In this document: positions 7,498-27,573 of the stretch, piece by piece | Numbering within the stretch: position 1 is the first letter of the stretch | Layout of the letters: each line of letters opens with the position of its first letter | NCBI RefSeq assembly: GCF_000023965.1 | Contig: NC_013202.1 | Span: 1,170,001-1,202,000 of the forward strand | Reading direction: 5' to 3' | Length of the DNA: 32,000 nucleotides | DNA from: Halomicrobium mukohataei DSM 12286 | Lineage (GTDB): Archaea; Halobacteriota; Halobacteria; Halobacteriales; Haloarculaceae | Program-made: the position numbers and the translations under genes | The notes under the pieces: generated by a model | Database searches by the model: none | The model's input: the letters and a program-made list of their open reading frames with translations, nothing else | Told to the model about the DNA's origin: nothing

Positions 7498-7682
7498 GAC
7501 GAGCATCCGCGCCATAGGCGCGGTTCACCGGTCCGACTGCAGGAGGTCCGGCGTTTTTCGCCCACGTTCGCAAGAGCGCCGCTCTTGCGAGCTCATCAGA
7601 GATCGAAGATTTCTGAGGACGTTTTTGCGCAAGCGGTTCGCGAGTACAGCGAGCGAACCCGCAGAGCAAAAAGGTGGTCTCG
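7498..7682 (+). repeat. Structured intergenic repeat element, copy 1 (plus orientation)
   Basis: Blocks in order:
- GC hairpin at 7507-7523 (ccgcgcc-ata-ggcgcgg).
- TTTTTCGCCCAC.
- Palindrome at 7569-7589 (cgcaagagcg-c-cgctcttgcg).
- Long hairpin module at 7622-7672 (TTTTTGCGC..GGTTCGC-loop-GCGAACC..GCAAAAA).
The block order matches the element at 15306-15464. Confidence 0.8.
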
Positions 7683-7751
7683 CAACACTCGCGAGGAAGT
7701 GGACGCGCTGGTCGACGCACTCGATCAGGCCCGCGAGCTGTTCGCGTAGCG
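7683..7751. repeat. Direct repeat copy B: orphan copy of the sufS 3' end
   Basis: Perfect 69-nt copy of 7429..7497, located 254 bp downstream and not attached to any gene body. Confidence 0.97.
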
Positions 7752-7837
7752 AGTGGTCCCCCTCACGAGTCGCGGTCCCGCGAGCGAGGTGACACGATCC
7801 GTGGGCGAAGGCAGCGGCCGCCGGCCTGAGGGCGGCG

Positions 7838-8857
7838 TCAGCCGCCGTCACCGGGCTGGTGGCGCTCTCGGGCGACGTACTGCCACTCGTCCCGGCCGAG
7901 CCCATCCGTGCCGTTCGAGTAGGCGAGCTGGTCGTACAGCCCGTTGTAGTTCATGACGCTGTCGTACTCCTCGGTGGAGTACGTCTTGCTGTCGACGCCT
8001 TCGGCTCGGCCGTCGAGGCCGAAGGCGTGTCCCAGTTCGTGCATGAACAGCGACGCGGTGAGTTTCGGCGCGTCGAAGGTCTGCATCGCGACGATGCCGG
8101 GGCGGCCGGCACCGACGTAGCGGGGCTGTCCGTCGTAGGCCACGTCGTCGGCCAGGACGACGTAGTAGTACGCCGAGCCGCTGGCGTCGAAGTGGTCCTC
8201 GCGGAAGTCGTACATGTCGTCGCGCGGTCCGGGCCTGTCGGTAGAGTAGACGGTGGCGTTGCTTTCGAGCCCCCGGTCGTCAACGAGGACGTGTATATCG
8301 ATCCCCGACCCACCGCTCGGGTTCTCGACTGGGGCGTCCGCGAACGTCCGCTCGATCAGGTCGACGGCGGCCTCGCTCAACCGATTCTCGCCGGTCGCGT
8401 CGACCTCGACGTAGATGTCGTGTTCGAGCGGGTCGGCGTCGGGGTACAGCGGGTCGTCGACCTCGGTACCGTCCGGGATACCGTCACCGTCCGTGTCGGG
8501 ATCTGTCGGGTCCGCTCCCAAGCTGCGTTCCCGCTCGTCGATCAGCCCGTCGGCGTCGGTGTCCGTCGCGTTCACCGACGCGGTCGAACCGTCGGGCTCG
8601 GTGGTACCGCCGACGCGCTGTCGTCGAATCGCGGCTCCGTCGGTTTCGGCGTCGTCGGCGTCGACCAGCCGCTCGGCCACTGTCGCGCCGCCGGCAGGGC
8701 GGACCTGCGTCTCGTCGTCGCTGACCGACACCGCCAGTGTGCCGCTGGCGACCGCTGCGACGACCAGCAGGGCGGTGACGACGTGGATCGGACCCACGCT
8801 CACGGCGTCGACGGGCGCGGCGAGTCGACCGCGACCGCCTCGTGGCCGGCTAGCCAT
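7838..8857 (-). CDS. Secreted or membrane-anchored zinc metalloprotease-like protein with calcium-binding repeats
   Basis: N-terminal hydrophobic anchor. DxDxDG thrombospondin-type-3-like repeats (DTDADGLID, DPDTDGDGIPDG). HELGHAFGLD zinc motif followed by a Met-turn-like SVMNY. Confidence 0.7.
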   Translation of the reverse strand: MASRPRGGRGRLAAPVDAVSVGPIHVVTALLVVAAVASGTLAVSVSDDETQVRPAGGATVAERLVDADDAETDGAAIRRQRVGGTTEPDGSTASVNATDTDADGLIDERERSLGADPTDPDTDGDGIPDGTEVDDPLYPDADPLEHDIYVEVDATGENRLSEAAVDLIERTFADAPVENPSGGSGIDIHVLVDDRGLESNATVYSTDRPGPRDDMYDFREDHFDASGSAYYYVVLADDVAYDGQPRYVGAGRPGIVAMQTFDAPKLTASLFMHELGHAFGLDGRAEGVDSKTYSTEEYDSVMNYNGLYDQLAYSNGTDGLGRDEWQYVARERHQPGDGG

Positions 8858-9127
8858 CGCTCTCCCCCAGGTGGCTATCAGAACCGATACTAGTGCCCGA
8901 GACGGCGTGGTTCGACCACCGACGGCGAACGGGTCCTGTCGCCGCCCAAGCGAGTGAGCGGGCCGACAGAGCGATACGCATACGAATAGAAGGAGGTGAC
9001 TAACGGGACATAAGACACGCCGTCAAATTATCGGAGCTGATACTGCATCGCTCCGAGCGTCCCGAGCGGGTGGGCACGGCGCGGCGAGTGGCGCTACTTT
9101 TTTCCGGGGTGTCGTAAATCACACAGT

Positions 9128-9808
9128 ATGAGCCTGAGTGAGCGGTTGCGGCGCAGTTTCGTCGCCGGCCTGATCCTCCTCGCGCCGCTGGTCGTGACCG
9201 TCTACGTAATACGGACACTCGCCAACTGGACGCTCCAGCTCGTGGAACCGATCGTCGCCAGTACGCGACTGGCGAGCTACACCGGCGACGACCAGCTGCT
9301 GGCCCAGTTCGTCGCGATCGGTGCCGTCCTCGTCGCAGTGGTCGTGCTCGGCTCGCTCGCACAGCGCAACGCCGGTCGACAGCTGTTCGGCAACGTGGGG
9401 CGGATCGTCAACGTCGTGCCGCTCGTGAACACGATCTACACCAGCGTCCGACAGGTCGCCAACTCGCTCGTCGACCGCGACGAGGCCTACGAGAGCGTCG
9501 TCCTCGTGGAGTACCCCCGCGACGGGATCTACTCGATCGGTCTCGTCACCGGCGACAGCCCGGTCGACGTAGACGCCTTCGGCGGGGAATCGGTGTACAA
9601 CGTCTACTTCCCGAACAGCCCGAATCCCACCGGCGGGCGTCTCGCGCTCGTCCCCGAGAGCGATCTCCACGAGACGGACATGAGCGTCAAGGCCGGGCTG
9701 CGCCTGCTCGTGACGACCGGCGTCACCGAAGACGGCGAGCCGAAGTCGGTTCCGGCCGTGTCAGGCGAGACAGTTGCGACCCGCGACGAGACCCCAGACC
9801 ATCGGTAG
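9128..9808 (+). CDS. DUF502 family membrane protein
   Basis: 226 aa. N-terminal TM pair (FVAGLILLAPLVVTVYV...) and a conserved core (YPRDGIYSIGLVTG...FPNSPNPTGG) typical of DUF502. Confidence 0.78.
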   Translation: MSLSERLRRSFVAGLILLAPLVVTVYVIRTLANWTLQLVEPIVASTRLASYTGDDQLLAQFVAIGAVLVAVVVLGSLAQRNAGRQLFGNVGRIVNVVPLVNTIYTSVRQVANSLVDRDEAYESVVLVEYPRDGIYSIGLVTGDSPVDVDAFGGESVYNVYFPNSPNPTGGRLALVPESDLHETDMSVKAGLRLLVTTGVTEDGEPKSVPAVSGETVATRDETPDHR

Positions 9809-9882
9809 CGGCGGTTCGCCAGCCGACACACCAGTCTTTCTGGACAGACTGTCGAACAGATGCCCGATCGGCACCGGCCGAA

Positions 9883-10698
9883 CTACGTCCTCGCACCCTC
9901 GCCACGCAATCGATGACCGAACACCGCGAGCACCGTCCCCAGAGCGAATCCGACGGCAATCGGTCCCGCCCAGGACAGCACCACGGGTACCGTCCAGCGC
10001 CAGATGACTGGCCCGAGCAGTGCGAACAGGACGGCGAGGGTGCCTCCCCGAACGATCACCGTCCGGGGCATCGCGAGGCGACTGCCCCCGAGCACGCCCA
10101 TACCGTACGCGAGGACCGCGCCCACGCCACAGGCCAGACAGAAGCGAACGACGTGGAGGAGCCACTGAAACGGGTGCAGCGGCGGCAGGTCGCCACGGAC
10201 GACCGCCCGAACGACGGCGGCGTCGAGGAGCCACGACGTGAGCGGCCAGTACGCGACCGCGACCGCTCCCGCGAACGCGACGACACCACCAGTGAGAAAC
10301 GAGGCGAATCGGCGGCGTCGCCGCCACGGGCCCGGGAGCGTCGCACGCTGCCACCACTCGAAAGCGAGACGTACCGTCCCGACACAGAGGCCGAGGACCC
10401 CGGCGACCAACAACTTCGAGATCAGCACGTCGAACGGCGTGACCGTACCGAGAGTGACAACGGTCGCTTCCGGAAGCCGTCCGGCGAGCGGATCATCGAC
10501 GAGTGCCGGCCAGACGAACCGGTGGAAGACGACGAGGGAAACGCCAGTCGTGACCAGGCCCTCACGGAACGCGCGCCGGACCACGCCTGGATAGTGCAAC
10601 GGAGTCGTGAGCAACCGAAAGAGGGCGTCGAGGCGGCCGCAGAGGGAGTGGTCGCTACCGCGACGAGGACACATACCCGTCAGTTGCCCCGAACACAC
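9883..10698 (-). CDS. Multi-pass membrane protein, function unknown
   Basis: About 6 hydrophobic segments. No confident family assignment. Start codon uncertain. Confidence 0.5.
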   Translation of the reverse strand: MCSGQLTGMCPRRGSDHSLCGRLDALFRLLTTPLHYPGVVRRAFREGLVTTGVSLVVFHRFVWPALVDDPLAGRLPEATVVTLGTVTPFDVLISKLLVAGVLGLCVGTVRLAFEWWQRATLPGPWRRRRRFASFLTGGVVAFAGAVAVAYWPLTSWLLDAAVVRAVVRGDLPPLHPFQWLLHVVRFCLACGVGAVLAYGMGVLGGSRLAMPRTVIVRGGTLAVLFALLGPVIWRWTVPVVLSWAGPIAVGFALGTVLAVFGHRLRGEGART

Positions 10699-10780
10699 CC
10701 ATCAATTTTCTGTTGTGTCCGGTCGTGACGACGACCAGGAATTCGATGCCGACTAGTAGCGTCGGCGGCTTGCTCCGGGT

Positions 10781-11101
10781 ATGACCGCGTTCGATCCCGA
10801 AAAGTTCGAGGACAAGTACGAACACTACTTCACAGAGCTACAGAAGGCCTACAAGCAGGCCTTCGAGGTGATGAACGACCGCTACGACTCGGAGCTGATC
10901 CACGCCATCGACCAGCAGATCCTCAACGAGTCCGAACCGGTCTACGAAGGTGACGGCGAGTTCGGGATCGACCTCCCGGAGGACCCGACCGAACGCCTGA
11001 CCGCGATCGTCGTCGACGACGAGAAGCTGGAGACCGTCCTGGAGCGCTACGTCGAGGAACTGGAGTCCCAGCATCGGACGATCTTCGGATTCGAGGAGTA
11101 G
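10781..11101 (+). CDS. Conserved acidic hypothetical protein (106 aa)
   Basis: MTAFDPEKFEDKYEHYFTELQKAYKQAFEVMNDRYDSELIHAIDQQILNE.... Strongly acidic with clean codon usage. I recall similar proteins across haloarchaea but cannot name the family with certainty. Confidence 0.68.
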   Translation: MTAFDPEKFEDKYEHYFTELQKAYKQAFEVMNDRYDSELIHAIDQQILNESEPVYEGDGEFGIDLPEDPTERLTAIVVDDEKLETVLERYVEELESQHRTIFGFEE

Positions 11102-11172
11102 CGAGACGCCGACCGAAGTGCGGTCTCGAAAACGCGAGCGGAGGGCGACCCGCGGGAGAGCGGGCGGTGACA

Positions 11173-11389
11173 CTCCCGCTCGCCGCTTCCGAGGGCCGTG
11201 ACTCACTCCGTTCGTCACGCCCCTCGCTGCTCACGTGTCGTTCACTTCATTCGCTCCCGCTCGCCGCTTTCGAGGGCCGTGACTCACTCCGTTCGTCACG
11301 CCCCTCGCTGCTCACGTGTCGTTCACTTCATTCGCTCCCGCTCGCCGCTTTCGAGGGCCGTGACTCACTCCGTTCGTCACGCCCCTCGC
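11173..11389. repeat. 81-bp tandem repeat, about 2.7 copies, carrying the element core hairpin (minus orientation)
   Basis: GTGACTCACTCCGTTCGTCAC recurs at 11198, 11279 and 11360 (period 81). The copies differ at one position (c/t in cgccgctt[c/t]cgaggg). The array ends 45 nt before the RFC start codon. Confidence 0.95.
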
Positions 11390-11434
11390 GCGCATCCGGA
11401 AAATCCATACCCGTCGCTGGCCAACGACGATTCG

Positions 11435-12457
11435 ATGGACGCACCCCTGTGGACCGAGAAACACGCCCCATCGCTCGCAGATATCCCCCAGCCACAGGCT
11501 CGCGAGCACCTCCAGGGCGCGATCGAGGAGCCGATGAACCTCCTCGTTCACGGACCGATCGGGGCGGGCAAGACCGCGGCCGTGCGGGCGCTGGCCGAGG
11601 AGACCCACGAGAACCCCGACGCCGACCTCGTCGAGATCAACGTCGCCGACGTGTTCGATCTGAGCAAGAAGGAAGTCGCCAACGACCCCCGGTTCTCGTC
11701 GTTTATCGACTCGAAGCGCCGACGTGACTCCTCGAAGGCGGACCTGATCAACCACGTCCTCAAGGAGTCGGCGAGCTACACGCCGATGTCGGGCTCGTAC
11801 AAGACGATCCTGCTGGACAACGCCGAAGGGATGCGAGAGGACTTCCAGCAGGCGCTGCGTCGCGTGATGGAGCAGTACTACGAGGCGACGCAGTTCGTGA
11901 TCGCGACGCGCCAGCCCTCCCAGCTCATTCCGCCGATCCGCTCGCGGTGTTTCCCGATCGTGATGCGTGCGCCGACCCACGAGGAGACCGTCGGCGCGCT
12001 CGAACGAGTCGCCGAGAGGGAGGGGGTCGACTACGACGCGGACGGCCTGGAGTACGTCGCGGGCTACGCCGACGGCGACCTCCGCCAGGCGGTGCTGGCC
12101 GCCCAGACAACCGACGAACAGGCGGGCGAGATCACGATGAACACCGCCTACGAGGCTCTCAACGCCGTCGAGGCCGACGACCAGGTCGAGTCGATGATCG
12201 CGGCCGCCGAGGCCGGCGAGTTCACCGACGCGCGTGCGACCCTCGACGATCTGCTCGTCGACGAGGGCCACAGCGGCGGAGACGTGCTCGAAGACGTACT
12301 CGCGGTCGTTCGGGCTCGCTACTCGGGCGATCGCGTCGCCGAGATCCATCGGATCGCCGGCCGGATCGACGCCGACCTCGTCGAGGGGACAAGCGACCGG
12401 ATCCACGTCTCACATCTGCTGGCCGAGATCGGCGAACTCGCCCGGACGGGAGAGTGA
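11435..12457 (+). CDS. rfcC: Replication factor C small subunit (divergent RfcC-like paralog)
   Basis: Start at MDAPLWTEKHAP (the RFC N-terminal LWxEKxxP motif). Walker A GPIGAGKT, LLDNAEGM in place of the DEAD box, and an SRC motif (IRSRCF). The symbol is tentative. Confidence 0.82.
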   Translation: MDAPLWTEKHAPSLADIPQPQAREHLQGAIEEPMNLLVHGPIGAGKTAAVRALAEETHENPDADLVEINVADVFDLSKKEVANDPRFSSFIDSKRRRDSSKADLINHVLKESASYTPMSGSYKTILLDNAEGMREDFQQALRRVMEQYYEATQFVIATRQPSQLIPPIRSRCFPIVMRAPTHEETVGALERVAEREGVDYDADGLEYVAGYADGDLRQAVLAAQTTDEQAGEITMNTAYEALNAVEADDQVESMIAAAEAGEFTDARATLDDLLVDEGHSGGDVLEDVLAVVRARYSGDRVAEIHRIAGRIDADLVEGTSDRIHVSHLLAEIGELARTGE

Positions 12458-12461
12458 TCGC

Positions 12462-12647
12462 ATGACCTACTGGGAGAACGTCCTGACGGTCGCCCTCGGA
12501 GCGACCCTCGCGTTCGGCGTGGTCGATCTGAGCGGTCGATTCCTCGCGGTCCCGCTGTTCGCCGGCAGTGCTCTCCTCGCGTGGGGCTTGTTTGGCGGGA
12601 TCGAGGAGGCAGTCAGGCGGGGTCGCGCCGACGAGTCCGAGGACTGA
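12462..12647 (+). CDS. Small membrane protein (61 aa)
   Basis: MTYWENVLTVALGATLAFGVVDLSGRFLAVPLFAGSALLAWGLFGG... has two TM helices and an acidic tail. It starts 5 nt after the RFC stop. Confidence 0.45.
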   Translation: MTYWENVLTVALGATLAFGVVDLSGRFLAVPLFAGSALLAWGLFGGIEEAVRRGRADESED

Positions 12648-12748
12648 TCGGGACCGCGCGGTCGAGACTACTCGACGCTGCCAGGCATGAGCGATATTCA
12701 ACATTTCCAGCAATACTTTTCAATTGAGTATCAGTAGTACCAGCCGGA

Positions 12749-13201: not shown

Positions 13202-13286
13202 ATAGCGGGCCACGGCGGAGGCCGGTATCGGCCACCCGTGGCTCGACATGGGAAGCTTCCTTAGGATCGAAGCAGTAGCTACGGTC

Positions 13287-15305
13287 ATGAAACGAGAGCC
13301 GCCACAGACCGAAGAGGGCTGGTACGTGTTGCACGACCTGCGCCACGTCGACTGGGACGCCTGGCGGGCGGCCCCCGAACGGGACCGCGACCGAGCGTTG
13401 ACCGACGGGATCGACTATCTGGAGTACTTCGAGGCCGTCGAGGACAGTTCGGAGGGGCAGTCGGCGGTCTACACCGTGCTGGGCGACAAGGCCGATCTCA
13501 TGATCTTGCACCTGCGGCCGACGATGGCCGACCTGGACGCCGCCGAGCGGCAGTTCGAGCAGACCGAGTTCGCCCGCTACACCGAGCAGGCCACCTCCTA
13601 CGTCTCCGTGACGGAGGCCTCGGGCTACACCGAGAAGGCCCGCGAGTACTTCGACGGCGAGGTCGACGACGACTCCGGGCTGGCACAGTACATCCAGGCC
13701 CGTCTACACCCCGACATCCCCGACGAGGAGTTCGTCTGCTTCTACCCGATGAGCAAGCGTCGCGAGCCGGACCAGAACTGGTACGACCTGCCCTTCGCCG
13801 AGCGGGCCGAACACATCAAGCGCCACGGTGACATCGGCCGTCAGTACGGCGGCAAGGTCGAGCAGATGATCGCCGGCTCGATCGGCTTCGACGACCACGA
13901 GTGGGGGATCACGCTCTGGAGCGACGACATGACCCACGTCAAGGACCTGCTGACTCAGATGCGCTTCGATCCCTCGACCTCGAAGTTCGCCGACTTCGGG
14001 CGCTTCTACGTCGGTCGCCGATTCGCGCCGTCGGACCTGCCGGCGATGATGAACGGCCAGCGCGTCCCGTCCGCGGGCGCGAACGCATCGGGAGCGACGA
14101 CCGACGGACGCGCCCAGCCCACCGACGGAGACCATCCCGGTACCCGCGAGACCGCGACGGCCGGCCAGTCCGGCGACGCGGGCAGTCACGGCGGCGTCCA
14201 TCCGGGCAGTTCCGCCGAGGGCGACCACCCCCACGACGGCGGCGACGTGGCCAGCCGAGACGGGGAAGCCGACGAGGCGAGCGAGAGCGGCGACGGCCAC
14301 CCCGATGGCGGCGGCCGTCCAGACCCCGGTGACGCGTCCTACGAGGAGACCGACGACCTCGCACAGCGCCTCGCCACGATGGGGCTGTCCGAGGGCGAGG
14401 ACTACGACGCTGGCGACTACGGACTGCTGTTCTACTCGGAGAGCGACGCCGAGGCACTGGCCGACGAAGTCGCGGATCTCCGGGAGAGCTTCGACCACTA
14501 CGACCGCCACGTCGCGACGACCGTGCGCGCCCAGAGCGGCCGGGCGGCCGTCGTGAGCATCTGGACCGCACAGGAAGCCGCCGAGACCGCCGCCGGGTTC
14601 CTGGGCGACGTGTCCGGGGTCAGCGACACCTACGGGGGCCGCCTCGGCGAGGGAGCCGCCGACGAGCCCGAGCCGACGACGGCGAACTCCAGCGAGGAGA
14701 TCCAGCAGCAACTTGCCGATGCAAACGTCTACGCCGGACAGCCGAACGGAGAGGACGTGTTCGCGCTGGTGCTGTACTCCGAGGCCGACCCCGAGACGCT
14801 GTCTACCGAAGTGACCGAGCTCACGGAGAGTTTCGATCACTACGACACACACGAGGGCACTGCGGTCTACGAGGCCGGCGAGCCCCTCGACGCCGCGACG
14901 GCGGACGCCGACCAGCCCCGAGCGGCCGTCGTCAGCCTCTGGGAGACCCAGAGCGCCGCCGACACGGCGAGTGGCTTCCTCACCGACCTCCCGGGGATCG
15001 TCGGCCGCCCCGACGAGGGCGACGGTTTCGGCACGATGGGGATGTTCTACACCGTCGAGCCGGACCACCGCGAGGAGTTCGTCGAGACCTTCGACGAGGT
15101 CGGCGAGCTACTCGACGAGATGGACGGCCACCGAGAGACGACGCTGCTGGCGAACCGCGACGACGTGAACGACATGTTCATCGCGAGCCAGTGGGACAGC
15201 AAGGAAGACGCGATGGCGTTCTTCCGGTCGGACGAGTTCGCCGAGACCGTCCAGTGGGGCCGAACAGTGCTCGCAGACCGTCCTCGGCACGTCTTCCTCG
15301 CCTGA
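13287..15305 (+). CDS. Chlorite dismutase-like (HemQ/Cld family) domain fused to a C-terminal ABM monooxygenase-like domain (PitA-like), with a long acidic insertion
   Basis: The N-terminal about 250 aa are Cld-like (WYVLHDLRHVDW...FYPMSKRR...RHGDIGRQYGG...). The C-terminal about 95 aa form an ABM fold (GMFYTVEPDHREEFVETFDEV...FIASQWDSKEDAMAFFRSDEF). About 300 aa of D/E/G/H-rich linker plus two internal repeats lie between them. An alternative start exists at 13248. Confidence 0.8.
   Translation: MKREPPQTEEGWYVLHDLRHVDWDAWRAAPERDRDRALTDGIDYLEYFEAVEDSSEGQSAVYTVLGDKADLMILHLRPTMADLDAAERQFEQTEFARYTEQATSYVSVTEASGYTEKAREYFDGEVDDDSGLAQYIQARLHPDIPDEEFVCFYPMSKRREPDQNWYDLPFAERAEHIKRHGDIGRQYGGKVEQMIAGSIGFDDHEWGITLWSDDMTHVKDLLTQMRFDPSTSKFADFGRFYVGRRFAPSDLPAMMNGQRVPSAGANASGATTDGRAQPTDGDHPGTRETATAGQSGDAGSHGGVHPGSSAEGDHPHDGGDVASRDGEADEASESGDGHPDGGGRPDPGDASYEETDDLAQRLATMGLSEGEDYDAGDYGLLFYSESDAEALADEVADLRESFDHYDRHVATTVRAQSGRAAVVSIWTAQEAAETAAGFLGDVSGVSDTYGGRLGEGAADEPEPTTANSSEEIQQQLADANVYAGQPNGEDVFALVLYSEADPETLSTEVTELTESFDHYDTHEGTAVYEAGEPLDAATADADQPRAAVVSLWETQSAADTASGFLTDLPGIVGRPDEGDGFGTMGMFYTVEPDHREEFVETFDEVGELLDEMDGHRETTLLANRDDVNDMFIASQWDSKEDAMAFFRSDEFAETVQWGRTVLADRPRHVFLA
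15255..15305. repeat. Diverged direct repeat copy A: last 16 codons plus stop of the pitA-like gene
   Basis: Encodes WGRTVLADRPRHVFLA*. Pairs with 15465..15515. Confidence 0.85.
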
Positions 15306-15464
15306 GAACGGCCACGAGTGACGCGAGTGGCCGCTTTTTCGCCACCGGGAGAGCAAGCTCTCCCGAGCCCACACTCGCTTTGCTCGCGTGGACCGCGTTT
15401 TTGCGCGAGGGTTCCCGCAACGAACGGAGTGAGTGAAGAAACCCGACGCGGAAAAAGGAGGAGT
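15306..15464 (+). repeat. Structured intergenic repeat element, copy 2 (plus orientation)
   Basis: Blocks in order:
- Hairpin at 15310-15332 (ggccac..gtggcc) followed by T5 at 15335-15339.
- TTTTTCGCCAC.
- Palindrome at 15346-15365 (cgggagagc-aa-gctctcccg).
- Hairpin module at 15398-15456 (TTTTTGCGCGAGGGTT...CGAACGGAGTGAGTGA...AACCCGACGCGGAAAAA). Confidence 0.8.
15310..15339 (+). terminator. Possible transcription terminator (GC hairpin followed by T5)
   Basis: ggccac-N11-gtggcc, then gcTTTTT, beginning 5 nt after the stop codon. Oligo-T tracts are the known archaeal termination signal. Confidence 0.4.
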
Positions 15465-15515
15465 TGGGGGCGGACGGTGCTGACCGACCGTCCGCGCCAC
15501 GTCTTCCTAGCATAG
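15465..15515. repeat. Diverged direct repeat copy B: orphan 3' end encoding WGRTVLTDRPRHVFLA*
   Basis: 39/51 nt identical to copy A. The differences are almost all third-position synonymous, and an in-frame stop is retained (TAG versus TGA). Confidence 0.85.
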
Positions 15516-15593
15516 CGAGGGGGCACCACGGTCACTCTAACCGCGTTTTGAGCGACGGAACGTACTTTGTCGGTCGAGGCGGTGCGTGCGTGT

Positions 15594-16145
15594 ATGAACC
15601 GACGCGGCTTCCTCGCGGCACTGACCGGCGGCGGCCTCGCCGCGGCCAGTGGCTTCTCGACGCATCGACCGCGCCTGATCGATGGCGCGCGGCGCGGTCG
15701 GGGTGACCCCGTCTCGGTGACGCGGACGATCACCGACGAGTCGATCACGTACGACGCCGATCGAGGAACGGTCCGCTATCCGACGCTGGTCGGGAGCGAC
15801 GGGCCGATCGAACACGAGTCGGAACCGTTCGTGCTGTGGGCGAACCGGCGCTGTGCCAGCGTCGGCTCGGAGGTCGTGCTCCCGGCGATCGCGGATCGCG
15901 TCGACGGAGAACCGACCGGGATCGGGAAGGGAGTCAGCGGTACGTCCTTCGGGCTGGCGATCACCGTCTCGGCGACGACGACACGCGACCGCGATGGGAC
16001 CGTCGTCAGCGAACCGAGCGTCCCGCTGGAGCGACTCGTGGCAGTGACGCCAGCGAGCGTCTCCGCCACGATCCAGTTCGACGGGCGAGAACACACCCGC
16101 CACGTCCCGGTGTTCGTCGAGGAGAGCGAAGTGAGCTACCTGTAG
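15594..16145 (+). CDS. Tat-signal secreted protein, function unknown
   Basis: ATG at 15594 gives MNRRGFLAALTGGGLAAASG (twin-arginine signal). No family recognised for the mature part. Confidence 0.62.
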   Translation: MNRRGFLAALTGGGLAAASGFSTHRPRLIDGARRGRGDPVSVTRTITDESITYDADRGTVRYPTLVGSDGPIEHESEPFVLWANRRCASVGSEVVLPAIADRVDGEPTGIGKGVSGTSFGLAITVSATTTRDRDGTVVSEPSVPLERLVAVTPASVSATIQFDGREHTRHVPVFVEESEVSYL

Positions 16146-16168
16146 CGAGGCGAGCGAAAAGTCGGGTG

Positions 16169-18057: not shown

Positions 18058-18083
18058 CCCATCGTTGTCGGTACAATATCCCG

Positions 18084-19084
18084 AACGCTCTTGTGAAGCA
18101 CGTTGTTGATTTTCAGAGTGCGGCGTTGAGAGCATGTTTGAGTGCTTCGTCACCTGGTTTTCTGTAGAGTTCACGGCGGAGTTCGAAGGCTCTGAGATAC
18201 GGCGTTAGCTTGTCTTTCGAGACGCCTCGATGGGGGCGAGAGCCACCGTCGCGTCAGCGACGCGTGGCTCTCGCAGCCGTTGACGTGTACTTCGCCATCA
18301 GCGTATTCACCGTCGCTGTGGACGACGTATTTGCGGGTGAATGAGTCGTCGTCTTCTAGTGGGTCGTAGGCCCGAAATCCGTCCGTATAGACGGTCAGTG
18401 ACTCCTCTTCGTGGTCAGCAAGCAGGAGTCGAACGGTCGATTCGTCAGCGGATTTCGCTGGCACGACGTACCGCTCGTCCGAACCACGATCGACGAGCGT
18501 GAACACCGGCGGTTTGTCGCCGTCGTACGATCCCCGTCCACGCGTGGACAGGCCACGCGAGCGCGACTCCTGGTCACGCTCGCGGCCTTTGAGACCAGCA
18601 GAGACGTACACTTCGTCGATTTCGACCGGTCCAGACAGCGTAATCGAAGGCGCGTCGAGAGTTCTGGCGAACTGCTCGACGTGCCGTCTCACCGTCCGGT
18701 AGGAACAATCAAGCTCTGCCTCGATTTGCCGAATACTCGTGTTGAACCGTAAGAACACGTAGATCGTGAAGTACCATTCTTTGAGCTTCAGCTTCGAGTG
18801 AGCGAAGATCGTGTCGGTCTTGTCGTTGAACGTGCGACCGCAATTCTTACACAGATACCGTTGATACACCCGGTAGCTGCCGTTTCTGACCGTCAGGTCA
18901 GAACGGCAGCGGGGGCACTCGACGCCATCACGCCAGCGAACCTGTTCCAGCAGGTCCGCTGCAGCCGATTCCGACACGAACCGGCTTATTGGGAACATAT
19001 CGGGCACCGCTAGCGCGGTGCCCTTGCCCTCTTCGACTTTCAGCTCCAGCCATCGCTATCAACAATCTCCTTCGCAAGAGCGTT
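18084..19084 (-). mobile_element. IS1595-family insertion sequence (ISH4-like size, about 1.0 kb)
   Basis: Imperfect terminal inverted repeats: AACGCTCTTGTGAAGCACGTTGTTGAT (left) versus the reverse complement of the right end, AACGCTCTTGCGAAGGAGATTGTTGAT. It encloses a transposase gene. I found no matching target-site duplication. Confidence 0.85.
18113..19007 (-). pseudogene. IS1595-family transposase, interrupted by a 1-nt frameshift in a C5 run
   Basis: N-terminal zinc ribbon (CPRCRS...CKNCGRTF) and a DDE core. The ORF-track reading ends ...RRWLSPPSRRLERQ.... Removing one C of the run at 18232-18236 restores ...WLSPHRGVSKDKLTPYLRAFELRRELYRKPGDEALKHALNAAL*, ending at 18113. Confidence 0.8.
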
Positions 19085-20327
19085 GAGCTCTTTTTCCCGG
19101 TTTTCAGAACACTTCACCGCGGAGCTGAAATGCTTGGAAATACGGTGTACGCTCGTGTGAAGCACGTTGTTGGTAAATCAGAGGACGGTTCGAACGATTT
19201 CTTTGAGCGCTTCTTCACCGGGTTTGCGTAGGATTCGTCAGCGAAGTTGGAATACTCTGAGATACGGCGTCAGTTTGTCTTTGGAGACTCCTCGCAGGTA
19301 TTCACGTGTGCGTCTCCATCCACGTATTCACCCTCGCTGTGAATGACCGCTTCTCGCTGGTAGTGCTCGTCGTCTTCGAGTGGATCGTACGCTCGAAATC
19401 CATCAGTATAGCTGGTTAGCGACTCTTCCTCGCAGTCGCCGAGGAGGAGTCGCACGGTCGATTCGTCAGCGGATTTCGCCGAGACAACGTAGCGCTCACC
19501 CCTGCCACGATCGACCAACGTGAACACCGGTGGTTTGTCACCATCGTACGATCCTCGTCCACGCGTGGACAGACCACGCGAGCGCGACTCTTGATCGTGC
19601 TCGTGGCCCTTCAGCCCCGCAGTCACGTAGACTTCGCCGATTTCGGCCGGGCCAACGAGGCTGATGGCTGGCGCGTCGAGCGTTCTGGCGAACTGCTCGA
19701 CGCGCCGCCATAGTGACCGATACGAAACGGGGAGTTCAGCGTCCAACTGGTGGATACTCGTGTTGAACCGAAGAAACGAGTAGAACGCGAACAAGAGCTT
19801 GTCGGGAGCTTGTCCTCAGCGTATGTTCCACGTCCGCTCGTGAACAGGTCGCACTCGTGGCCCTTGAGACCCACTTTCATGTAGAACTCGTCGGTCTTAA
19901 CGGGGCTTTCGAGGTATGGTTGAGGCAAGCGCGTTCAGCGCTTGCAGGAAGCGCTGACACGCCGGTGGACCGTCTTGTAAGAAACGTCAATTTCTGCGTC
20001 TAGCTGCCTGAGACTCGTGTTCAAGCAGATGTGGATGTAGACGGCGAGAACTCACTTTCTGAGCGCGACCGTATAGTATTCGAAGATTGTGCCAGTCTGA
20101 TCGTTGAATGTGCGGTCGCAATTATCCCATAGAAGCTCTGAAACACTCGATAACTGCCGTACCGAATCACAGATCGGCACAGTAGCGTGGGAAATAGGCC
20201 GTCGCGCCGAGACGAACGCCTTGATTGGCATCATCGTTTGTCGGGTGATACGGTCACGTCACCCTTGCCTGCTGTGACTTCCAGTTACTGGTGAGAACTG
20301 ACCAACAATCTTCTACCCAAGAGCGTC
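19085..20327 (-). mobile_element. Mosaic of degraded IS1595-family copies (at least two)
   Basis: Components:
- 19085-19148: C-terminal remnant (TPYFQAFQLRGEVF*KPG).
- About 19149: a second left IR (ACGCTCGTGTGAAGCACGTTGTTGG).
- 19270-19794: truncated transposase core.
- 19800-20234: a more diverged copy with stops (NTSLRQLDAEIDVSYKTV..., CDRTFNDQTGTIF).
- About 20303-20327: right IR (reverse complement ACGCTCTTGGGTAGAAGATTGTTGGT). Confidence 0.75.
19270..19794 (-). pseudogene. IS1595-family transposase fragment lacking the zinc-ribbon N-terminus, with a C-terminal deletion and frameshift
   Basis: 174 aa, closely similar to residues about 80-250 of the 18171-19007 ORF (FLRFNTSI.Q..AEL..SYR...R.VEQFARTLDAP...GLKG.E.DQESRSRGLSTRGRGSYDGDKPPVFTLVDRG). 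It ends abnormally after VNTCE. The downstream frame has an internal stop (QLR*RILRKPG). Confidence 0.8.
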
Positions 20328-20628: not shown

Positions 20629-20879
20629 ATTGAGTGTGTGAATGAAATGTATAGAAACTCTCAATAGAATACATTTGACTGTCGTTTTGTTGTTGGTGAA
20701 GATGCTGGGTGCTTCTTGAATTGCTGTCTCTCGATCGCCGTTACGTGTGCGTCGATGCGTGGCGTGGATGAGACGGCCCTCACCGAAGGCTCGAATCACA
20801 GTCCTGTCCTCCCGCCCGTCTGATCGTCGACTGTATCGAGCCACGGGTGTTTTTGTTGGACCCAACCGTTCGGTCGTCA

Positions 20880-21458: not shown

Positions 21459-21459
21459 G

Positions 21460-22026: not shown

Positions 22027-22073
22027 TCGGCCGGGACTGACGCGCCTTTGCTCGTCAGGTCCTCAGCACCGCC

Positions 22074-23123: not shown

Positions 23124-23533
23124 ACGAGCGGCCCCAGTCCGCCCCGATCGACGAACCGATCGGTCCCGTACCGGACGAGCGCCTCGGCGAGGCCGGGCAC
23201 CAGTGCGAACCCCAGCAGCAGCGGCCAGACGACGAGGTACGAACTGAGCGGATGGAGGTGGGTCCCGTAGGCCCACTGGTGCACCGTCTTGCCCAGCAGC
23301 CAGAGCGTCGCGGCCGCCGGTGTGACCAGCGACAGTCGGACGAGCAGGTACAGCGGGACGGCACCGATCAGGAAGAGGCCGACGAGGGCGTAACCGACGC
23401 CGAAGGCGGTCGCGGCCACGTCGTCGGTCGCCCAGTACACGCCGTTCGCGCGCAGCCACGCGAACACGACGGCCGCGTAGACGATACCACCGACGGCGGC
23501 GATGACGCGAGGGTCGCGGAGCCTGGAGGGCAT
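23120..23533 (-). CDS. Membrane protein, function unknown (137 aa)
   Basis: Four hydrophobic segments. Convergent with the previous gene, and the two stop codons overlap in a CTAG. Confidence 0.5.
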   Translation of the reverse strand: MPSRLRDPRVIAAVGGIVYAAVVFAWLRANGVYWATDDVAATAFGVGYALVGLFLIGAVPLYLLVRLSLVTPAAATLWLLGKTVHQWAYGTHLHPLSSYLVVWPLLLGFALVPGLAEALVRYGTDRFVDRGGLGPLV

Positions 23534-23613
23534 CGTCCGTCACTGCAGCCCCCTCGCACATCAATCTCGTCCCGACGCTAGAGCTTTGGGTCTCCCCGGC
23601 CACCGGCCATACG

Positions 23614-24519
23614 ATGGACCGTCGGCGCTCACTGCTCGTCGCCCTGGTGGCCCTGGCCGCCCTCGCCGGCTGTCTCTCGGGCGGGCCACAGACGCCAGCC
23701 GCGCCCGGCGACGCCGTCCCGGCAGGGAGCGACACCGTCAACGCCACGGTCACCCGCGTCGTCGACGGCGACACCGTCGAGATCCGATACGACGACGGGA
23801 CGTTCGACACCGTCCGGCTGCTCGGGATCGACACCCCCGAGACCCGCGGCGGGACGAACCCCGCGGAGTTCGAGGGCGTCCCCGACACCGCGGCCGGCCG
23901 GGCCTGTCTCGAACGGGCCGCCGGCAACGCGACCCGCGCCCTCGAAGCCCTCGTCGGCGGCGAGCCGGTCGTCGTCGCTGTCGACCCGCAAGCCGACCGA
24001 CGGGATCGCTACGATCGACTGCTGGCTCACCTCGTCGTCGACGGCGTCGACGCCAACGAACGGCTCGTCGAGCGGGGCCACGCGCGGGTCTACGACAGCG
24101 CGTTCTCGCGCTCGGACCGGTTCTACGAGCACGAACGGGCCGCGCGGGACGCCGGCCGCGGCGTCTGGGCCTGTGTGGACCCCGCCACGCCGACTGGCGG
24201 CGTCGGCCTCCGGGTCGTCGCCGACGCCCCGGGCGACGACCGCGAGAACCCCAACGGCGAGTACGTCGTCGTCTCGAACTCCGGGGGCGACCCGCTCGCG
24301 ATCGGCAACTGGACGGTCACCGACGAGGCCGGCCACAGGTACACCTTCCCGCCGGGCGCGACGGTGCCCGCGAACGGTTCGGTCCGACTCTACTCCGGTT
24401 CGGGGACCGACACCGCCACCGAGTTCTACCGCGGGAACGGCCCGATCTGGAACAACGACGGCGACACCGCCACCCTGCGCGCCGCGAACGGCACGGTCGT
24501 CGCCGCGGCGTCGTACTGA
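23614..24519 (+). CDS. Secreted thermonuclease (staphylococcal nuclease, SNase) fused to a lamin-tail domain; lipoprotein
   Basis: Signal peptide with lipobox (LAALAGC). SNase core (VVDGDTVEI...VRLLGIDTPE...DRYDRLLAHL...ERLVERGHARV). C-terminal LTD (ENPNGEYVVVSNSGGDPLAIGNWTVTDEAGHRYTFP...NNDGDTATL). Confidence 0.85.
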   Translation: MDRRRSLLVALVALAALAGCLSGGPQTPAAPGDAVPAGSDTVNATVTRVVDGDTVEIRYDDGTFDTVRLLGIDTPETRGGTNPAEFEGVPDTAAGRACLERAAGNATRALEALVGGEPVVVAVDPQADRRDRYDRLLAHLVVDGVDANERLVERGHARVYDSAFSRSDRFYEHERAARDAGRGVWACVDPATPTGGVGLRVVADAPGDDRENPNGEYVVVSNSGGDPLAIGNWTVTDEAGHRYTFPPGATVPANGSVRLYSGSGTDTATEFYRGNGPIWNNDGDTATLRAANGTVVAAASY

Positions 24520-24580
24520 CCGTCCGCGCGCTTCGCGGGCCGCGCGACACCCACAAACCGATCCAGTCCCAAGCGCAGGT

Positions 24581-25684
24581 ATGCGCCGGCCGGACTGGCT
24601 CCCGACGCGGCCGCTCCCCAGACTCGAACCTGGCCCGCGAGTCCTCGACTGGAGCCTCGCGGCCGCGGTCGCCCTCATTCTCGCGACGGGTGTCTACAGC
24701 CTCGTCGCGGGCCGGCCCGGACAGGCGTGGGTGTTCGATCTCCACGCGATCGGCGGGCTCGCGCTCGTGGTCCTCCTGGTCTTCAAGCTCCGCAGAGTCG
24801 CGCCACGGGTCACGCCCGATCGGCTCACCGCTCCCAGAGTGCTCTCGCTATCCCTCGCATTCGTCACCGCGGCGGCGCTCGCGACGGGGCTGTGGTGGGT
24901 GCTTGGCGGTTCCGTCTCGATCGGCCCGTGGGGGCTGTTGAACCTCCACGTCGGCGTCGGGCTGGTCGTCCCGGTCGTCCTCCTCTTGCACCTGCGCCAT
25001 CGGTTTCACGACCCACGGAACGTGCCGAGCCGCGACCGCCGCACAGCACTGCGGTACGCCGGCATCGCCGGCATCGCGGCCCTGACCTGGCGGAGCCAGC
25101 GAGTGCTCAACGACGCCCTCGATACGGCCGGCGCGGACCGGCGGTTCACCGGCTCTCGCGAGGTCGGGACGGACGAGGGCAACGCCTTCCCGCCGACGAG
25201 CTGGATGGCCGACGACCCCGATCCGATCGACAGCGACGAGTGGGTCCTGTCGGTCACCGGCCGGGTCGCCAGTCCCGCGACGTTCGGCGTCGACGACCTG
25301 GAACTGGACGATCTCGAGGGTGCCGACGAGCGGCGGGCCGTCCTCGACTGCACCAGCGGCTGGTACTCCGAGCACGACTGGCAGGGCGTCGCGGTCGCGG
25401 ACCTGTTGGCGGCGGTCGAACCGGACGACGCCGCCCGGTGGGTCCAGTTTCGCTCCGTGACGGGCTATCGCTGGTCGCTCCCCATCTCGGAGGCCGAGGA
25501 CGCACTGCTGGCGACCCACGTCGACGGCGACCGCCTCACACACGGTCACGGCGCGCCGATGCGACTGGTCGCGCCGGCACGACGCGGCCTCCAGTGGGTC
25601 AAGTGGGTCGACGAGGTCCGGCTCTCTCGCCGCCGCGAGATCGGCGAGTCGGTCGCGATCTTCGTCAGCGGCTTCGAGGAGTGA
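24581..25684 (+). CDS. Membrane-anchored molybdopterin-dependent oxidoreductase (sulfite-oxidase / YedY-MsrP fold)
   Basis: ATG at 24581. N-terminal TM helices, then a Moco-binding domain (RAVLDCTSGWYSEHDWQGV...FRSVTGYRWS...GHGAPMRLVAPARRGLQWVKWV). Confidence 0.8.
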   Translation: MRRPDWLPTRPLPRLEPGPRVLDWSLAAAVALILATGVYSLVAGRPGQAWVFDLHAIGGLALVVLLVFKLRRVAPRVTPDRLTAPRVLSLSLAFVTAAALATGLWWVLGGSVSIGPWGLLNLHVGVGLVVPVVLLLHLRHRFHDPRNVPSRDRRTALRYAGIAGIAALTWRSQRVLNDALDTAGADRRFTGSREVGTDEGNAFPPTSWMADDPDPIDSDEWVLSVTGRVASPATFGVDDLELDDLEGADERRAVLDCTSGWYSEHDWQGVAVADLLAAVEPDDAARWVQFRSVTGYRWSLPISEAEDALLATHVDGDRLTHGHGAPMRLVAPARRGLQWVKWVDEVRLSRRREIGESVAIFVSGFEE

Positions 25685-26317
25685 TCACAGCATCGCGGTG
25701 AGGATCGCGAACAGGTCCGTCTCGGCGTCCTCGTACTGCACCGGCACGAAGCCGGCCTCGCGGGCGGCCACCACGTCCGACTCGTGGCTGTCGCCGACCA
25801 TCACGTACTCCTCGGCGTCGACACGCTCGCGGACGGCGTCGTAGGGGTCGCCGTCGGTCTTGTGCCCGCCCACGTCGTAGGAGATCACCGTCTCGTCGAA
25901 GTCTGCGAGGTCGTGGCGGTCGATCTTCGCGCGCTGCCACTCGCCGACGCCGTCGCTACAGACCACGAGCGTCGTCGCCTCGTCCGCGCCCAGTTCCGAG
26001 AGGCAGTCCCGCGCGGCCGACGACACGCCGGTCGCCGCGAGCTCCTCGTCTCGCAGCGCCGCCACGAGCGCGTCGACGTTCACGTCGTCGGTGTCGATCT
26101 CGGCCTCCGCCAGCGCGGCCCGCATCCCCGCGTGGTACGGCTCCGGCTCACACTCCTCGAACGTATCGAAGAAACCGGTCTCGTAGGCCTCGACCATCTC
26201 CTCGGTCGCGGTCCCGATCTCGCGTTCGAAGGCCGTCGTCAGTATCTCGTCGAACGAACGATCGTACTGGACCAGCGTCCCGTCGAGGTCGAAACAGATC
26301 GCCGTCGTGGTGGTCAT
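25685..26317 (-). CDS. HAD superfamily hydrolase
   Basis: MTTTTAICFDLDGTLV (DxDGT motif I) and a C-terminal MVGDSHESDV (motif IV). The start overlaps the upstream stop (ATGA). Confidence 0.85.
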   Translation of the reverse strand: MTTTTAICFDLDGTLVQYDRSFDEILTTAFEREIGTATEEMVEAYETGFFDTFEECEPEPYHAGMRAALAEAEIDTDDVNVDALVAALRDEELAATGVSSAARDCLSELGADEATTLVVCSDGVGEWQRAKIDRHDLADFDETVISYDVGGHKTDGDPYDAVRERVDAEEYVMVGDSHESDVVAAREAGFVPVQYEDAETDLFAILTAML

Positions 26318-26730
26318 TCGGTGTCGATGGGTGCGCCGTCCTCGGTCGGCGGTGCGATGGCGTCGATGAAGGCCTCGGCCGACGGCTCGGTCACGCGCAC
26401 CTGGACGTGGATGTCCCCGAGCTCTGCGGGCCCGCCCACCGAGAAGTTGATCCGCCCCTCGAAGGCCGCCTGCTTGTTCAACTCGAATGTGAACGTGTCG
26501 TCGTCGAGCGTGTCGAAGAAGACGCCCCGGGCCGTGTCGAGGATCTCCTCGCGGTGGAGCAGCTCCGAGACGTGGCTCATGTCGTGACACTCCGCGACGA
26601 TCTGGTCGCCCTCGTAGCTGGGATCGGCCGTCGGGAAGATGTTCGTGACGGCGTCGGCGACCCGATCCGTCACCTCGGTGTCGTGGACCGGCGCAGTTAC
26701 CCGCACGTCGACGCTGTAAACCGCGCTCAT
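26314..26730 (-). CDS. UPF0201/DUF54-like putative RNA-binding protein
   Basis: 138 aa (VRVTAPVHDTEV...FTFELNKQAAFEGRINFSV...). Its size and pairing with a UPF0200-type P-loop protein match the conserved archaeal gene pair. Confidence 0.65.
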   Translation of the reverse strand: MSAVYSVDVRVTAPVHDTEVTDRVADAVTNIFPTADPSYEGDQIVAECHDMSHVSELLHREEILDTARGVFFDTLDDDTFTFELNKQAAFEGRINFSVGGPAELGDIHVQVRVTEPSAEAFIDAIAPPTEDGAPIDTE

Positions 26731-27317
26731 GCGTCCCCCTCCGCGGCGTCGTACTGGCTCCGGTAGGCGTCGATGCCGTCGGCCAGCAGCGTCCGCACCT
26801 TCGACTGGAACGCCTCCAGACTGTCGGTGTTGTCGATGTGTACGTCGGCCCGTTCCATGGCCGCGTCCATTCCGAAGCCTCGCTCGCGTTCGTCGCGCTC
26901 TTCGAGGGATTCACCGCCGTCGTCGCGATCGCCGTCTCGGCCCCGTTCTGCCAGCCGCGCTTCCCGGACCTCGAACGGTGCCTCGATGCTGACCAGCGAG
27001 AACGACGCCCCGAACGCCTCCTCGAAGGCGTCGACCTCCACGTCCGACCGGACGCCGTCGACCAGCACCGCGTCGCTCGACGCGAGCTCGTCTTCGATCA
27101 GCGGGAGCGACCGCTCGGCGATGGCCGCCGGCCCGTTCTCTTCGCGAAGCGCCGTCGCCACGCGGCCGTGCTCGGTCGCCGGATCCAGCCCGCGGTCCCG
27201 ACACTCCGCACGGATCACGTCTCCCATCGTCACGACCGGCACGTCCAGCTCGCGGGCGACGTTGGCGGCCTCGCCCTTGCCGCTGCCCGGTAGCCCGACC
27301 GTCGCGAGTACTCTCAT
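26727..27317 (-). CDS. UPF0200-type P-loop NTPase / nucleotide kinase-like protein
   Basis: Start at MRVLATVGLPGSGKGEA (Walker A). Adenylate/dephospho-CoA kinase-like fold and an acidic C-terminus. ATGA overlap with the downstream gene. Confidence 0.7.
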   Translation of the reverse strand: MRVLATVGLPGSGKGEAANVARELDVPVVTMGDVIRAECRDRGLDPATEHGRVATALREENGPAAIAERSLPLIEDELASSDAVLVDGVRSDVEVDAFEEAFGASFSLVSIEAPFEVREARLAERGRDGDRDDGGESLEERDERERGFGMDAAMERADVHIDNTDSLEAFQSKVRTLLADGIDAYRSQYDAAEGDA

Positions 27318-27369
27318 GGTGCTGGGATAGTCGCAGCCGTCGCTTAAGCACTGTGCTCCACCCGCGACA

Positions 27370-27450
27370 GCAAGCATATACCTGCCCGCGATCTACCGCA
27401 GACTATGGCTCAACGCTCTCTGGTCGTCTGTGCTCTCTGGTTCGTCTTCG
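27370..27450. repeat. Direct repeat copy A: orphan copy of the yccF-like promoter plus the first 46 nt of its CDS
   Basis: Aligns with 27574..27654 at an offset of 204. It includes the TATA-like catata (27375-27380) and an ATG at 27405, which opens a 39-codon decoy ORF (MAQRSLVVCALWFVFDDRFPRR...*, stop at 27522-27524). Confidence 0.9.
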
Positions 27451-27573
27451 ACGACCGTTTTCCGCGTCGGGTCTCCTCGCTCGCTCCGCTCGCTGCGGGG
27501 ACCCTCGCGCAAAACCGTCGATGAAAAAGGCAGCCACTCACTCCGTTCGTGGCTGATGCTGCTCTCCTCGCCC
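27451..27573 (-). repeat. Structured intergenic repeat element, copy 3 (minus orientation, short form)
   Basis: Read as the reverse complement:
- GAGCAGCATCA.
- Hairpin gccac-GAACGGAGTGA-gtggc (27533-27553), followed by CTTTTTC.
- Hairpin module GTTTTGCGCGAGGGTC...GACCCGACGCGGAAAAC (27458-27514).
It lacks the central palindrome block of copies 1 and 2. Confidence 0.8.

Follow-up and report, generated by a model that had tools for sequence, protein, structure and literature searches.

Three intergenic hairpin elements of Halomicrobium mukohataei are copies of a widespread mosaic palindrome family of the class Halobacteria

Introduction

Short, GC-rich imperfect palindromes that occur in many intergenic copies, often behind the 3′ ends of genes, are known from bacteria as REP, BIME and REPIN sequences; they consist of mosaic modules, show covarying stems and have themselves been linked to transcription termination, mRNA stability and recombination end-points. 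In a 32,000-nt stretch of the genome of the haloarchaeon Halomicrobium mukohataei DSM 12286 (NC_013202.1, positions 1,170,001 to 1,202,000; hereafter the window, whose internal coordinates are used throughout), three hairpin-rich elements, here called A, B and C, resemble these bacterial sequences in their structure and are copies of a widespread mosaic, nested-palindrome intergenic DNA family of the class Halobacteria. Unlike REP and BIME sequences, the family has an archaeal host, and polar duplications of 25–130 bp of upstream gene ends, as described below, are not known for REPs. REP sequences are defined by a palindrome of 20–40 nt with a conserved tetranucleotide, GTAG or CGTC, at one of its ends (PMC3733652); no such head occurs in our alignment of 84 element cores, which end instead in T5/A5 arms with a GCGCRAG/CGMNGCGS internal loop. 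A RAYT-like partner was absent from the ten open reading frames (ORFs) of the window that were scanned, where the only transposases were of the IS1595 type; no whole-genome protein search was made.

Among small mobile elements, the Correia elements of Neisseria and other terminator-forming miniature inverted-repeat transposable elements (MITEs) are similar in being small, non-autonomous, palindromic gene-end insertions that vary between strains and can act as terminators. In Correia elements, inverted terminal repeats define the ends and the target duplication is always TA, whereas the haloarchaeal element has one defined end, long variable duplications or none, and nested modules. The described MITEs of haloarchaea (the MITEHsal series, ISH2) derive from insertion sequences (ISs) and have terminal inverted repeats homologous to those of transposons, with examples of 5–7 bp target duplications and one insert of 411 bp (PMC7002104). 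The present family shares with them the non-autonomous mobile character and the host organisms, and a 55-nt module nested in element A behaves as a very small MITE; it differs in being 60–190 nt long, hairpin-built and without IS-like termini, its left junction is not conserved, and its duplications are either absent (62 of 94 copies) or 25–130 bp long. IS200/IS605-type and PATE elements have subterminal hairpins, a fixed 4–5 nt target, no duplication and a TnpA/TnpB partner, and the long duplications of our family, like the absence of any fixed tetranucleotide beside it, argue against such a membership. The family is closest in kind to bacterial REP/BIME sequences and terminator-type MITEs but fails their defining sequence features.

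Two further systems are comparable in single respects. The elements are like the intrinsic terminators of Haloferax (PMC7237163) in carrying T5C behind a GC hairpin and CCACC-T5C on the opposite strand, 3–125 nt from stop codons; unlike ordinary archaeal terminators, they are repeated, mobile and equipped with conserved arms. In yeast lacking FEN1 (rad27), unremoved flaps lead to duplications of up to ~100 bp (PMC13493898), and these events, tens to ~100 bp long, local, direct and tied to unprocessed 5′ flaps and secondary structure, are similar to the flanking duplications described here. The yeast duplications arise at random sites in a mutator, whereas those of the present family recur at one hairpin base, in wild-type archaea and across species. 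Searches of the literature by topic and with literal sequence strings returned no description of the family, and the mosaic hairpin family is apparently undescribed in the literature searched.

Results

Using a search pattern taken from the terminal module of the elements (TTTTTGCGCRAG..CCCGMNGNGNAAAAA), we found the family at 101 metagenome loci, with few exceptions from hypersaline samples, in 103 copies that match the pattern exactly; the layout is identical throughout, and modules recur alone and in combination among these loci. Halococcus chromosomes and a Haloferax plasmid carry the same element design, and BLAST matches place the family on 19 plasmids, in 10 genera and in three orders, with no annotated feature under any match. 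No copy was present in the viral contigs searched with the family pattern. A full copy has the order (AGCATCCG-hairpin h1)-TTCACC-hairpin h2-T5C-N5-G-T5-GCGCRAG-NGGT-apical hairpin-ACCCGMNGCGS-A5-G-N5′, and the metagenome copies show a GC hairpin (often after TTCACC), CTTTTTC, five variable bases, G and T5. The terminal N5′ pairs with the N5 ahead of T5 (CCCAC/GTGG, CCCAT/ATGG, TCGAC/GTCG, TGAAC/GTTC), and the loop forms a mini-hairpin, GA-NC-GGA-GN′-GA, in which N and N′ covary (G/C, A/T, C/G) among the haloarchaeal matches listed.

The three window elements have an ordered set of blocks in common by alignment, fold well below shuffled controls (z = -4.9, -2.9 and -2.85 for A, B and C) and contain 7 of the 17 T5/A5 runs in the window. 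A covariance model, R1, trained on 81 metagenome copies plus the three window copies, found exactly three cores in the window, with 68, 64 and 59 bits forward and 21, 18 and 15 bits in reverse; since the window copies were in the training set, these scores speak for family fit and orientation and not for independent discovery. The loop motif CGANCGGAGNGAGNGA (≤1 mismatch) matches the window six times with 0.43 expected, and GCGAGGG..CGANCGGAGNGAG five times with 0 expected. The ordered blocks at 7498, 15306 and 27451 and the recurrent loop motif, both claimed in the original prediction, which had been made from the letters of the window alone, are thereby upheld, with amendments. The blocks are partly nested insertions, because modules are missing in sister genomes; the perfect palindromes noted in the two long copies exist but belong to such separately inserted modules; and a proposed fourth locus (the tandem array in Table 1) has the hairpin loop motif but, according to R1, no core copy. 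The comparison with Rfam that had been proposed gave no matching family: at gathering scores of Rfam 15, the window and 14 loci yielded only an unrelated tRNA and leuA motif, and at E-values up to 1 nothing was returned for element A or a composite repeat.

In the alignment of 84 cores, 8 of 18 base pairs show two-sided changes; columns 26/56, for instance, hold UA 35, GC 30, CG 5 and AU 3 times, and another pair is GC in 54 and CG in 27 sequences. The covariation score of 0.250 compares with 0.060 in shuffles and ≤0.057 in slid-partner controls. Cells with two-sided change numbered 143, against 39.5 ± 4.4 in shuffles and 6–33 in slid controls, as expected from the stem covariation that had been predicted. 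The T5, GCGC, CCCG and A5 columns were fixed by the search pattern, while the flanking N5 pairs and the inner stems were unconstrained.

Several observations bear on the level at which these changes arose. In 11 flip/flop pairs, one apical hairpin is the exact reverse complement of the other, including a 28-nt case in which a bulge switches sides, and at one orthologous locus GCGCTTCGCGC is found in one genome and GCGCGAAGCGC in another. G-U pairs account for ~1–4% of pairs, and modules are swapped or inserted between nearly identical strains (97–100% identity). Because of the exact inversions, the scarcity of G-U pairs and the replacement of the core at locus B between strains that are 97–100% identical, the compensatory changes probably reflect maintenance of a DNA palindrome and not selection on RNA; stem changes such as those observed would result from inversion of the palindrome, templated correction of one arm by the other and gene conversion between copies of the repeat. 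A k-turn (L7Ae site) in the GAG/CGAA internal loop was considered and rejected upon inspection, as the non-bulged strand is without the required G-A beside the stem.

At sites that are otherwise conserved, genomes differ in whether they carry a whole element or the 55-nt sub-module, and the family therefore is, or recently was, mobile and non-autonomous. At the yccF locus, sister species with an empty site demonstrate the insertion of element C. Three Halomicrobium relatives (L232, L233, L234) have an 87-nt spacer between the AAA-kinase-like gene and yccF with no insert, and the window has this spacer, a 115-nt insert and a second copy of the 89-bp target. Positions 1158–1246 of L232 match both window copies of the duplication, and this empty site sets the duplicated target at 81–89 bp; within the window, 27351–27453 and 27553–27657 are ~87% identical. 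Element C consists of the core (27449–27523), T5C, read here as GAAAAA (27523–27528), a hairpin GCCAC..GTGGC (27533–27552) and the left edge GAGCAGCAT, and it is placed between divergent promoters, where no terminator is needed, and not in a 3′ untranslated region (UTR). Copy 1 of the duplication is contiguous with the AAA-kinase-like gene, whose orthologue in relatives is called at 196 aa, so that its start would fall near 27318. The duplicated tract is ~70–86% identical to the relatives and its flanks are 94–99% identical, which suggests an imported recombination tract or a locally raised mutation rate. Over 27370–27800, both duplication copies and the first ~200 nt of yccF are only ~70–90% identical to L232/L233.

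All three window elements are bracketed by direct duplications (69, ~50 and 81–89 bp at A, B and C, respectively), and the gene-end duplications that had been predicted were recovered at each locus by sequence comparison. We tabulated such flanks, as had been suggested, for 94 non-identical family copies and for random positions on the same contigs, calling a duplication when its score lay above the 99th percentile of mismatched controls. Long duplications flank 32 of the 94 copies and 2 of 328 random positions, an enrichment of ~50-fold, and range from 25 to 130 bp. The right duplicate starts 0–13 nt past A5 in every case; the left junction has no conserved sequence or terminus and lies 4–214 nt from the core outside full tandems. 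In 25 of the 32 duplications a gene that enters from the left has its stop codon in the left copy, so that the 3′ end copied is that of the gene facing T5-GCGC; no right copy is joined to a gene that enters from the right, although convergent genes adjoin that side in a third of the copies; the fixed polarity claimed from three loci thus extends to the family as 25:0.

The orphan copies are informative about the order of events. About seven duplications are full tandems with the same junction (X-E-X-E, where X is the duplicated flank and E the element). Other orphans contain part of the element, namely h1 and half of h2 in L164/L229 and, in L158, L165 and L203, the hairpin as far as the T-run, which means that in these cases the element was there before its flank was duplicated. 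For one gene, the same orphan junction is found in three genomes; the two copies of any one genome agree at 50/55 to 52/52 positions, whereas different genomes have clearly diverged from each other, which points to concerted evolution of the X copies.

A SufS protein identical to that of H. mukohataei DSM 12286 is encoded on CP045142.1 (GCA_009217585.1). At sufS, identified by a Pfam Aminotran_5 match, the two gene-end copies are identical (69/69), and the same X-E-X arrangement with an identical junction is present in Halomicrobium katesii and two other Halomicrobium genomes. Element A runs through GACG-AGCATCCG, h1 (CCGCGCC/GGCGCGG), TTCACC, h2, T5C (7554–7559), CGCCCACG, the nested 55-nt module and the core, followed by GGTGG and TCTCG; the core holds T5 (7622–7626), GCGCAAG, the apical hairpin, CCCGCAGAGC, A5 (7668–7672) and GGTGG. 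The 55-nt module is missing from L235, L236 and L237, which read TTTTTCrCCC-ACG-TTTTTGCGC, and was inserted separately inside element A with a 3-nt target duplication (ACG); it has no inverted termini. The module occupies the same position in L138, L215 and L220, stands directly before the core T5 in L206 and occurs elsewhere, alone, in L123 and L124. The L123 copy (1505–1560, Natrinema zhouii plasmid NZ_CP084883.1) is a 52–55-nt double hairpin with ACG on both sides, in an ORF that by eye only resembles an IS-type transposase frame, which would place the insertion within the coding sequence of a different mobile element.

In L235 and L236 the sufS orphan continues into CGGACGAGCATCCGCGCCGGAGGCGCGGT, the left part of the element (h1), of which window positions 7752–7780 are the decayed remnant. 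A simple tandem duplication had been rejected for locus A, as no second element follows the orphan; comparison with L235/L236 then showed that what follows is a decayed piece of one. The hexamer GTGGTC closes element A (GGTGGTCTCG, 7673–7682) and recurs right after the orphan (AGTGGTCCCC, 7752–7758). As a general microhomology junction it was discarded, no other locus having such a repeat, and chance or junction microhomology may apply.

At locus B, the gene before the element, thought to be pitA-like, encodes a chlorite-dismutase-like/ABM fusion. Positions 15255–15301 and 15465–15511 (47 bp) are ~79% identical, and the match reaches the stop codon (GCCTGA versus GCATAG; 47–51 bp). Element B comprises a hairpin GGCCAC..GTGGCC (15310–15332), T5C (15335–15340), nested modules (~15344–15394) that recur in L140, L174 and L181, and a core at 15390–15464 with T5 at 15398–15402 and A5 at 15452–15456. 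In H. katesii (L240) the element sits at the same junction, without the ~50-nt nested modules and with a different core, even though the surrounding 18 kb is 97–100% identical. The orphan of H. katesii is 84 nt long, is near-identical to the left copy (79% in the window) and includes the left hairpin of the element. Because of such orphans, the duplicated gene end is younger than the element at two of the three loci in the window and is no simple target-site duplication.

The region directly after element B differs in length between the strains, with 736 nt in the window (15343–16079) and 170 nt in H. katesii; an ORF in this strain-variable stretch (15567–16145) has a twin-arginine-like signal (MNRRGFLAAL). 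A ~1-kb segment, 9757–10741, is likewise missing in H. katesii, and repeat elements lie at or near the borders of strain-specific indels.

T5C, an experimentally confirmed terminator of Haloferax volcanii (PMC7237163), is a sequence feature on both strands of nearly all copies, so that the gene on the left meets hairpin-T5C and anything arriving from the right meets CCACC-T5C. Of the 34 cases called by heuristic, GC3-based gene prediction in the metagenome set, 30 have a co-directional gene that stops 35–125 nt ahead of the core; convergent genes stop 3–15 nt beyond A5 in 31 cases. A simple hairpin-plus-T scan flagged one hairpin only, and most loops exceed the limits of that scan. The T5C on both strands and the position directly behind 3′ gene ends suggest that the element is most likely a compact two-way transcription terminator or insulator.

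Table 1 Elements, duplications and neighbouring genes in the window.
Feature	Position	Strand	Remarks
sufS	6251–7495		
Duplication A, left copy	7429–7497	+	last 66 nt of sufS, stop and 2 nt; functional copy
Element A, long form	7498–7682	+	includes nested 55-nt module
Nested 55-nt double-hairpin module	7567–7621	+	TTCGCAAGAGCG..CGCTCTTGCGAGC.CATCAGAGATCGAAGATTTCTGAGGACG; ACG on either side
Element A core hairpin	7614–7680	+	model R1: 63.6 bits forward, 18.4 reverse
Orphan sufS end	7683–7751	+	followed by decayed h1 copy, 7752–7780
81-nt tandem array (2.7 units)	11173–11415	+	around hairpin GAGGGCCGTGAC-TCACTCCGTTC-GTCACGCCCCTC
Chlorite-dismutase-like/ABM fusion gene	13248–15305		
Duplication B, left copy	15255–15305	+	3′ end of chlorite-dismutase-like/ABM gene including TGA stop; functional
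Element B	15306–15464	+	model R1: 59.3 bits
Orphan gene end at B	15465–15515	+	~79% identical to left copy; stop-like TAG
AAA-kinase-like gene	26727–27377	-	as ORF scanned
Duplication C, copy 1	27362–27450	+	shared divergent promoter region and first 56 nt of yccF; orphan for yccF
Element C, 115-nt insert	27451–27565	-	model R1: 68.4 bits
Duplication C, copy 2	27566–27654	+	promoter and 5′ end joined to functional yccF
YccF-domain gene (yccF)	27609–27986		

Other repeats were noted in the window and among the metagenome loci. The 81-nt tandem array, which has only the loop motif in common with the family, sits between a DUF5783 gene and the gene of the RFC small subunit. Its site holds a single unit in H. 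katesii; each extra unit in the window consists of 54 ancestral nt and 27 nt (CTGCTCACGTGTCGTTCACTTCATTCG) absent from H. katesii, and in two other Halomicrobium strains (L238, L239) synteny breaks at the array, after DUF5783. Two adjacent ORFs for IS1595-family transposases (18171–19007 and 19270–19794, the latter truncated) occupy 18137–19794; the segments 18346–18645 and 19367–19666, ~1 kb apart, are 77–81% identical and look like tandem or degraded IS copies.

In 32 metagenome copies the element forms the right end of a larger conserved repeat of ~450 nt left of the core (loci including L126, L128, L131, L135, L143, L146, L155, L162, L179, L192 and L224), with the blocks ACTGAAmGCCCTCGGC, GGATATCCTC, CCTCCCCArCCG and AGCATCCGGGCGACCGAGCGGTCCG.AGGACCCGG. 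Its reverse complement holds GCGCGAGGGA-hairpin-GGCTGGGGAGGTGTGAGG, matched in Halorubrum, Natrinema, Halosimplex and other genera; the repeat has no Rfam match and does not occur in the window. Four loci of Actinomycetota (L009, L088, L091, L098) share a near-identical hairpin, GCGAGGGTGCkCCGAGCGGAGCGAGGmGCAACCCG, which seems to be a separate conserved, structured motif with no relation to the haloarchaeal elements. In a genome scan with a loose loop pattern, about three quarters of the matches, among at least 120 listed, were chance matches in GC-rich bacteria.

Discussion

The original prediction offered a directional mobile or recombinogenic element and a structured RNA as alternatives. 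The large covarying family, the polarity, the enrichment of duplications and the empty sites favour the former. For the gene-end duplications, a one-ended copy process anchored at the hairpin seems to us a better explanation than transposition with long target duplications, because the left end is undefined, orphans contain element sequence, tandems occur, 62 copies are free of duplications and the polarity is 25:0. Its starting point would be the base of the core at A5-GGTGG, where the DNA would be nicked or present a 5′ end, and from there strand-displacement or template-switch synthesis would re-copy 25–130 nt of upstream DNA. Synthesis through the folded element would give a full tandem, X-E-X-E, and bypass of the hairpins would give X-E-X with or without a left piece of the element, the orphan ending at h1, inside h2 or at the T-run. 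The displaced 5′ flap would begin with a stable hairpin, resist removal and be ligated back, and gene conversion might afterwards keep the two X copies alike. A mobile palindrome family with terminator function and with copying of this kind is the account towards which we lean, with modest confidence.

Several points weigh against it. The conservation of T5, GCGC, CCCG and A5 is overstated, as these were fixed by the search pattern, and related sequences can inflate shuffle-based covariation scores. About 21 of the 32 orphans stop before the element begins, which also fits target duplication. The relatives have neither element nor duplication at yccF, where a one-step insertion with an 89-bp target duplication is simpler and reads the case equally well. 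A one-sided nick at a near-palindrome is unexplained, and the terminator function as well as the flap and template-switch steps are what we infer from the arrangement of the copies. An extension of the favoured account, doubtful but conceivable, is that Halobacteria possess a dedicated structure-specific nuclease or recombinase that recognises the core and would nick the A5-GGTGG base and drive the spread, the module swaps and the polar copy-paste of upstream gene ends. If true, this would be a new kind of mobile terminator system that duplicates, and is able to renew, gene termini and promoters.

Classical cut- or copy-and-paste transposition of a non-autonomous element, with transposase nicks 25–130 bp apart and selection retaining insertions near gene ends where the duplication restores the ORF or promoter, would account well for the clean yccF site, where the window differs from three relatives by exactly the 115-nt insert and the 89-bp duplication, and for the ~21 duplicated blocks that end before the element. 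The gene-end bias would follow from selection alone, and the sub-module that inserts with a 3-nt target duplication indicates that machinery for small hairpin elements probably exists. We nevertheless think it unlikely, as only the right end is defined (A5-GGTGG plus 0–9 nt) and the left junction is not conserved, orphans include the left hairpins of the element at at least six loci, ~7 full tandems occur, most copies are without duplication, and random orientation would give both polarities. We know of no transposase that gives duplications so long and variable. A single crossover of a circle (X+E) with a chromosomal X would also yield exactly the X-E-X arrangement, and in a Campbell-type mode of spread, X-X recombination would release such a circle, which host homologous recombination would re-integrate in a naive copy of the gene, on another chromosome copy or in a related cell after mating, remaking X-E-X without a transposase. 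The yccF tract, diverged from the relatives as if imported, and the recurrence of X-E-X at the same genes across lineages (sufS in the window and L229; one gene in L151, L198 and L223) are in agreement with this. It leaves the first X-E-X, the fixed A5-GGTGG junction and the full tandems without an account; circles of 200–250 bp are poor recombination substrates, and no circle junction was seen; we consider it the least probable of the explanations weighed.

Strong covariation, low folding energies, a hairpin followed by a U-run and the fixed orientation behind a co-directional gene in most copies are also what a structured RNA would show, be it a 3′-UTR hairpin for stability or termination or a small RNA, whose stems would be kept by selection on RNA folding and whose duplications would be unrelated by-products. 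The tandem G-A and GNA motifs of the loop fit this reading, and such motifs stabilise RNA and DNA hairpins alike. This branch of the original prediction is weakened by the exact reverse-complement apical hairpins, in which loops and bulge side change and thus the RNA sequence but not the DNA palindrome is altered, by the scarcity of G-U pairs and by copy C between divergent promoters. The wholesale replacement of cores between nearly identical strains and the lack of an Rfam match also count against it, and a structured RNA appears quite improbable as the basis of the family.

Archaea are without a well-described equivalent of REP/BIME sequences, a gap that this family would fill for Halobacteria. 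It would account for many unannotated intergenic hairpins, gene-end remnants and small "pseudogene" fragments, and in annotation and assembly it would bear on orphan gene ends and on strain-variable modules at the borders of indels between strains. The polar, hairpin-anchored duplications would be a natural system for template switching, flap processing and gene conversion in polyploid, recombination-prone archaea. If the elements are portable two-way terminators, they would show how compact archaeal genomes gain and exchange termination signals.

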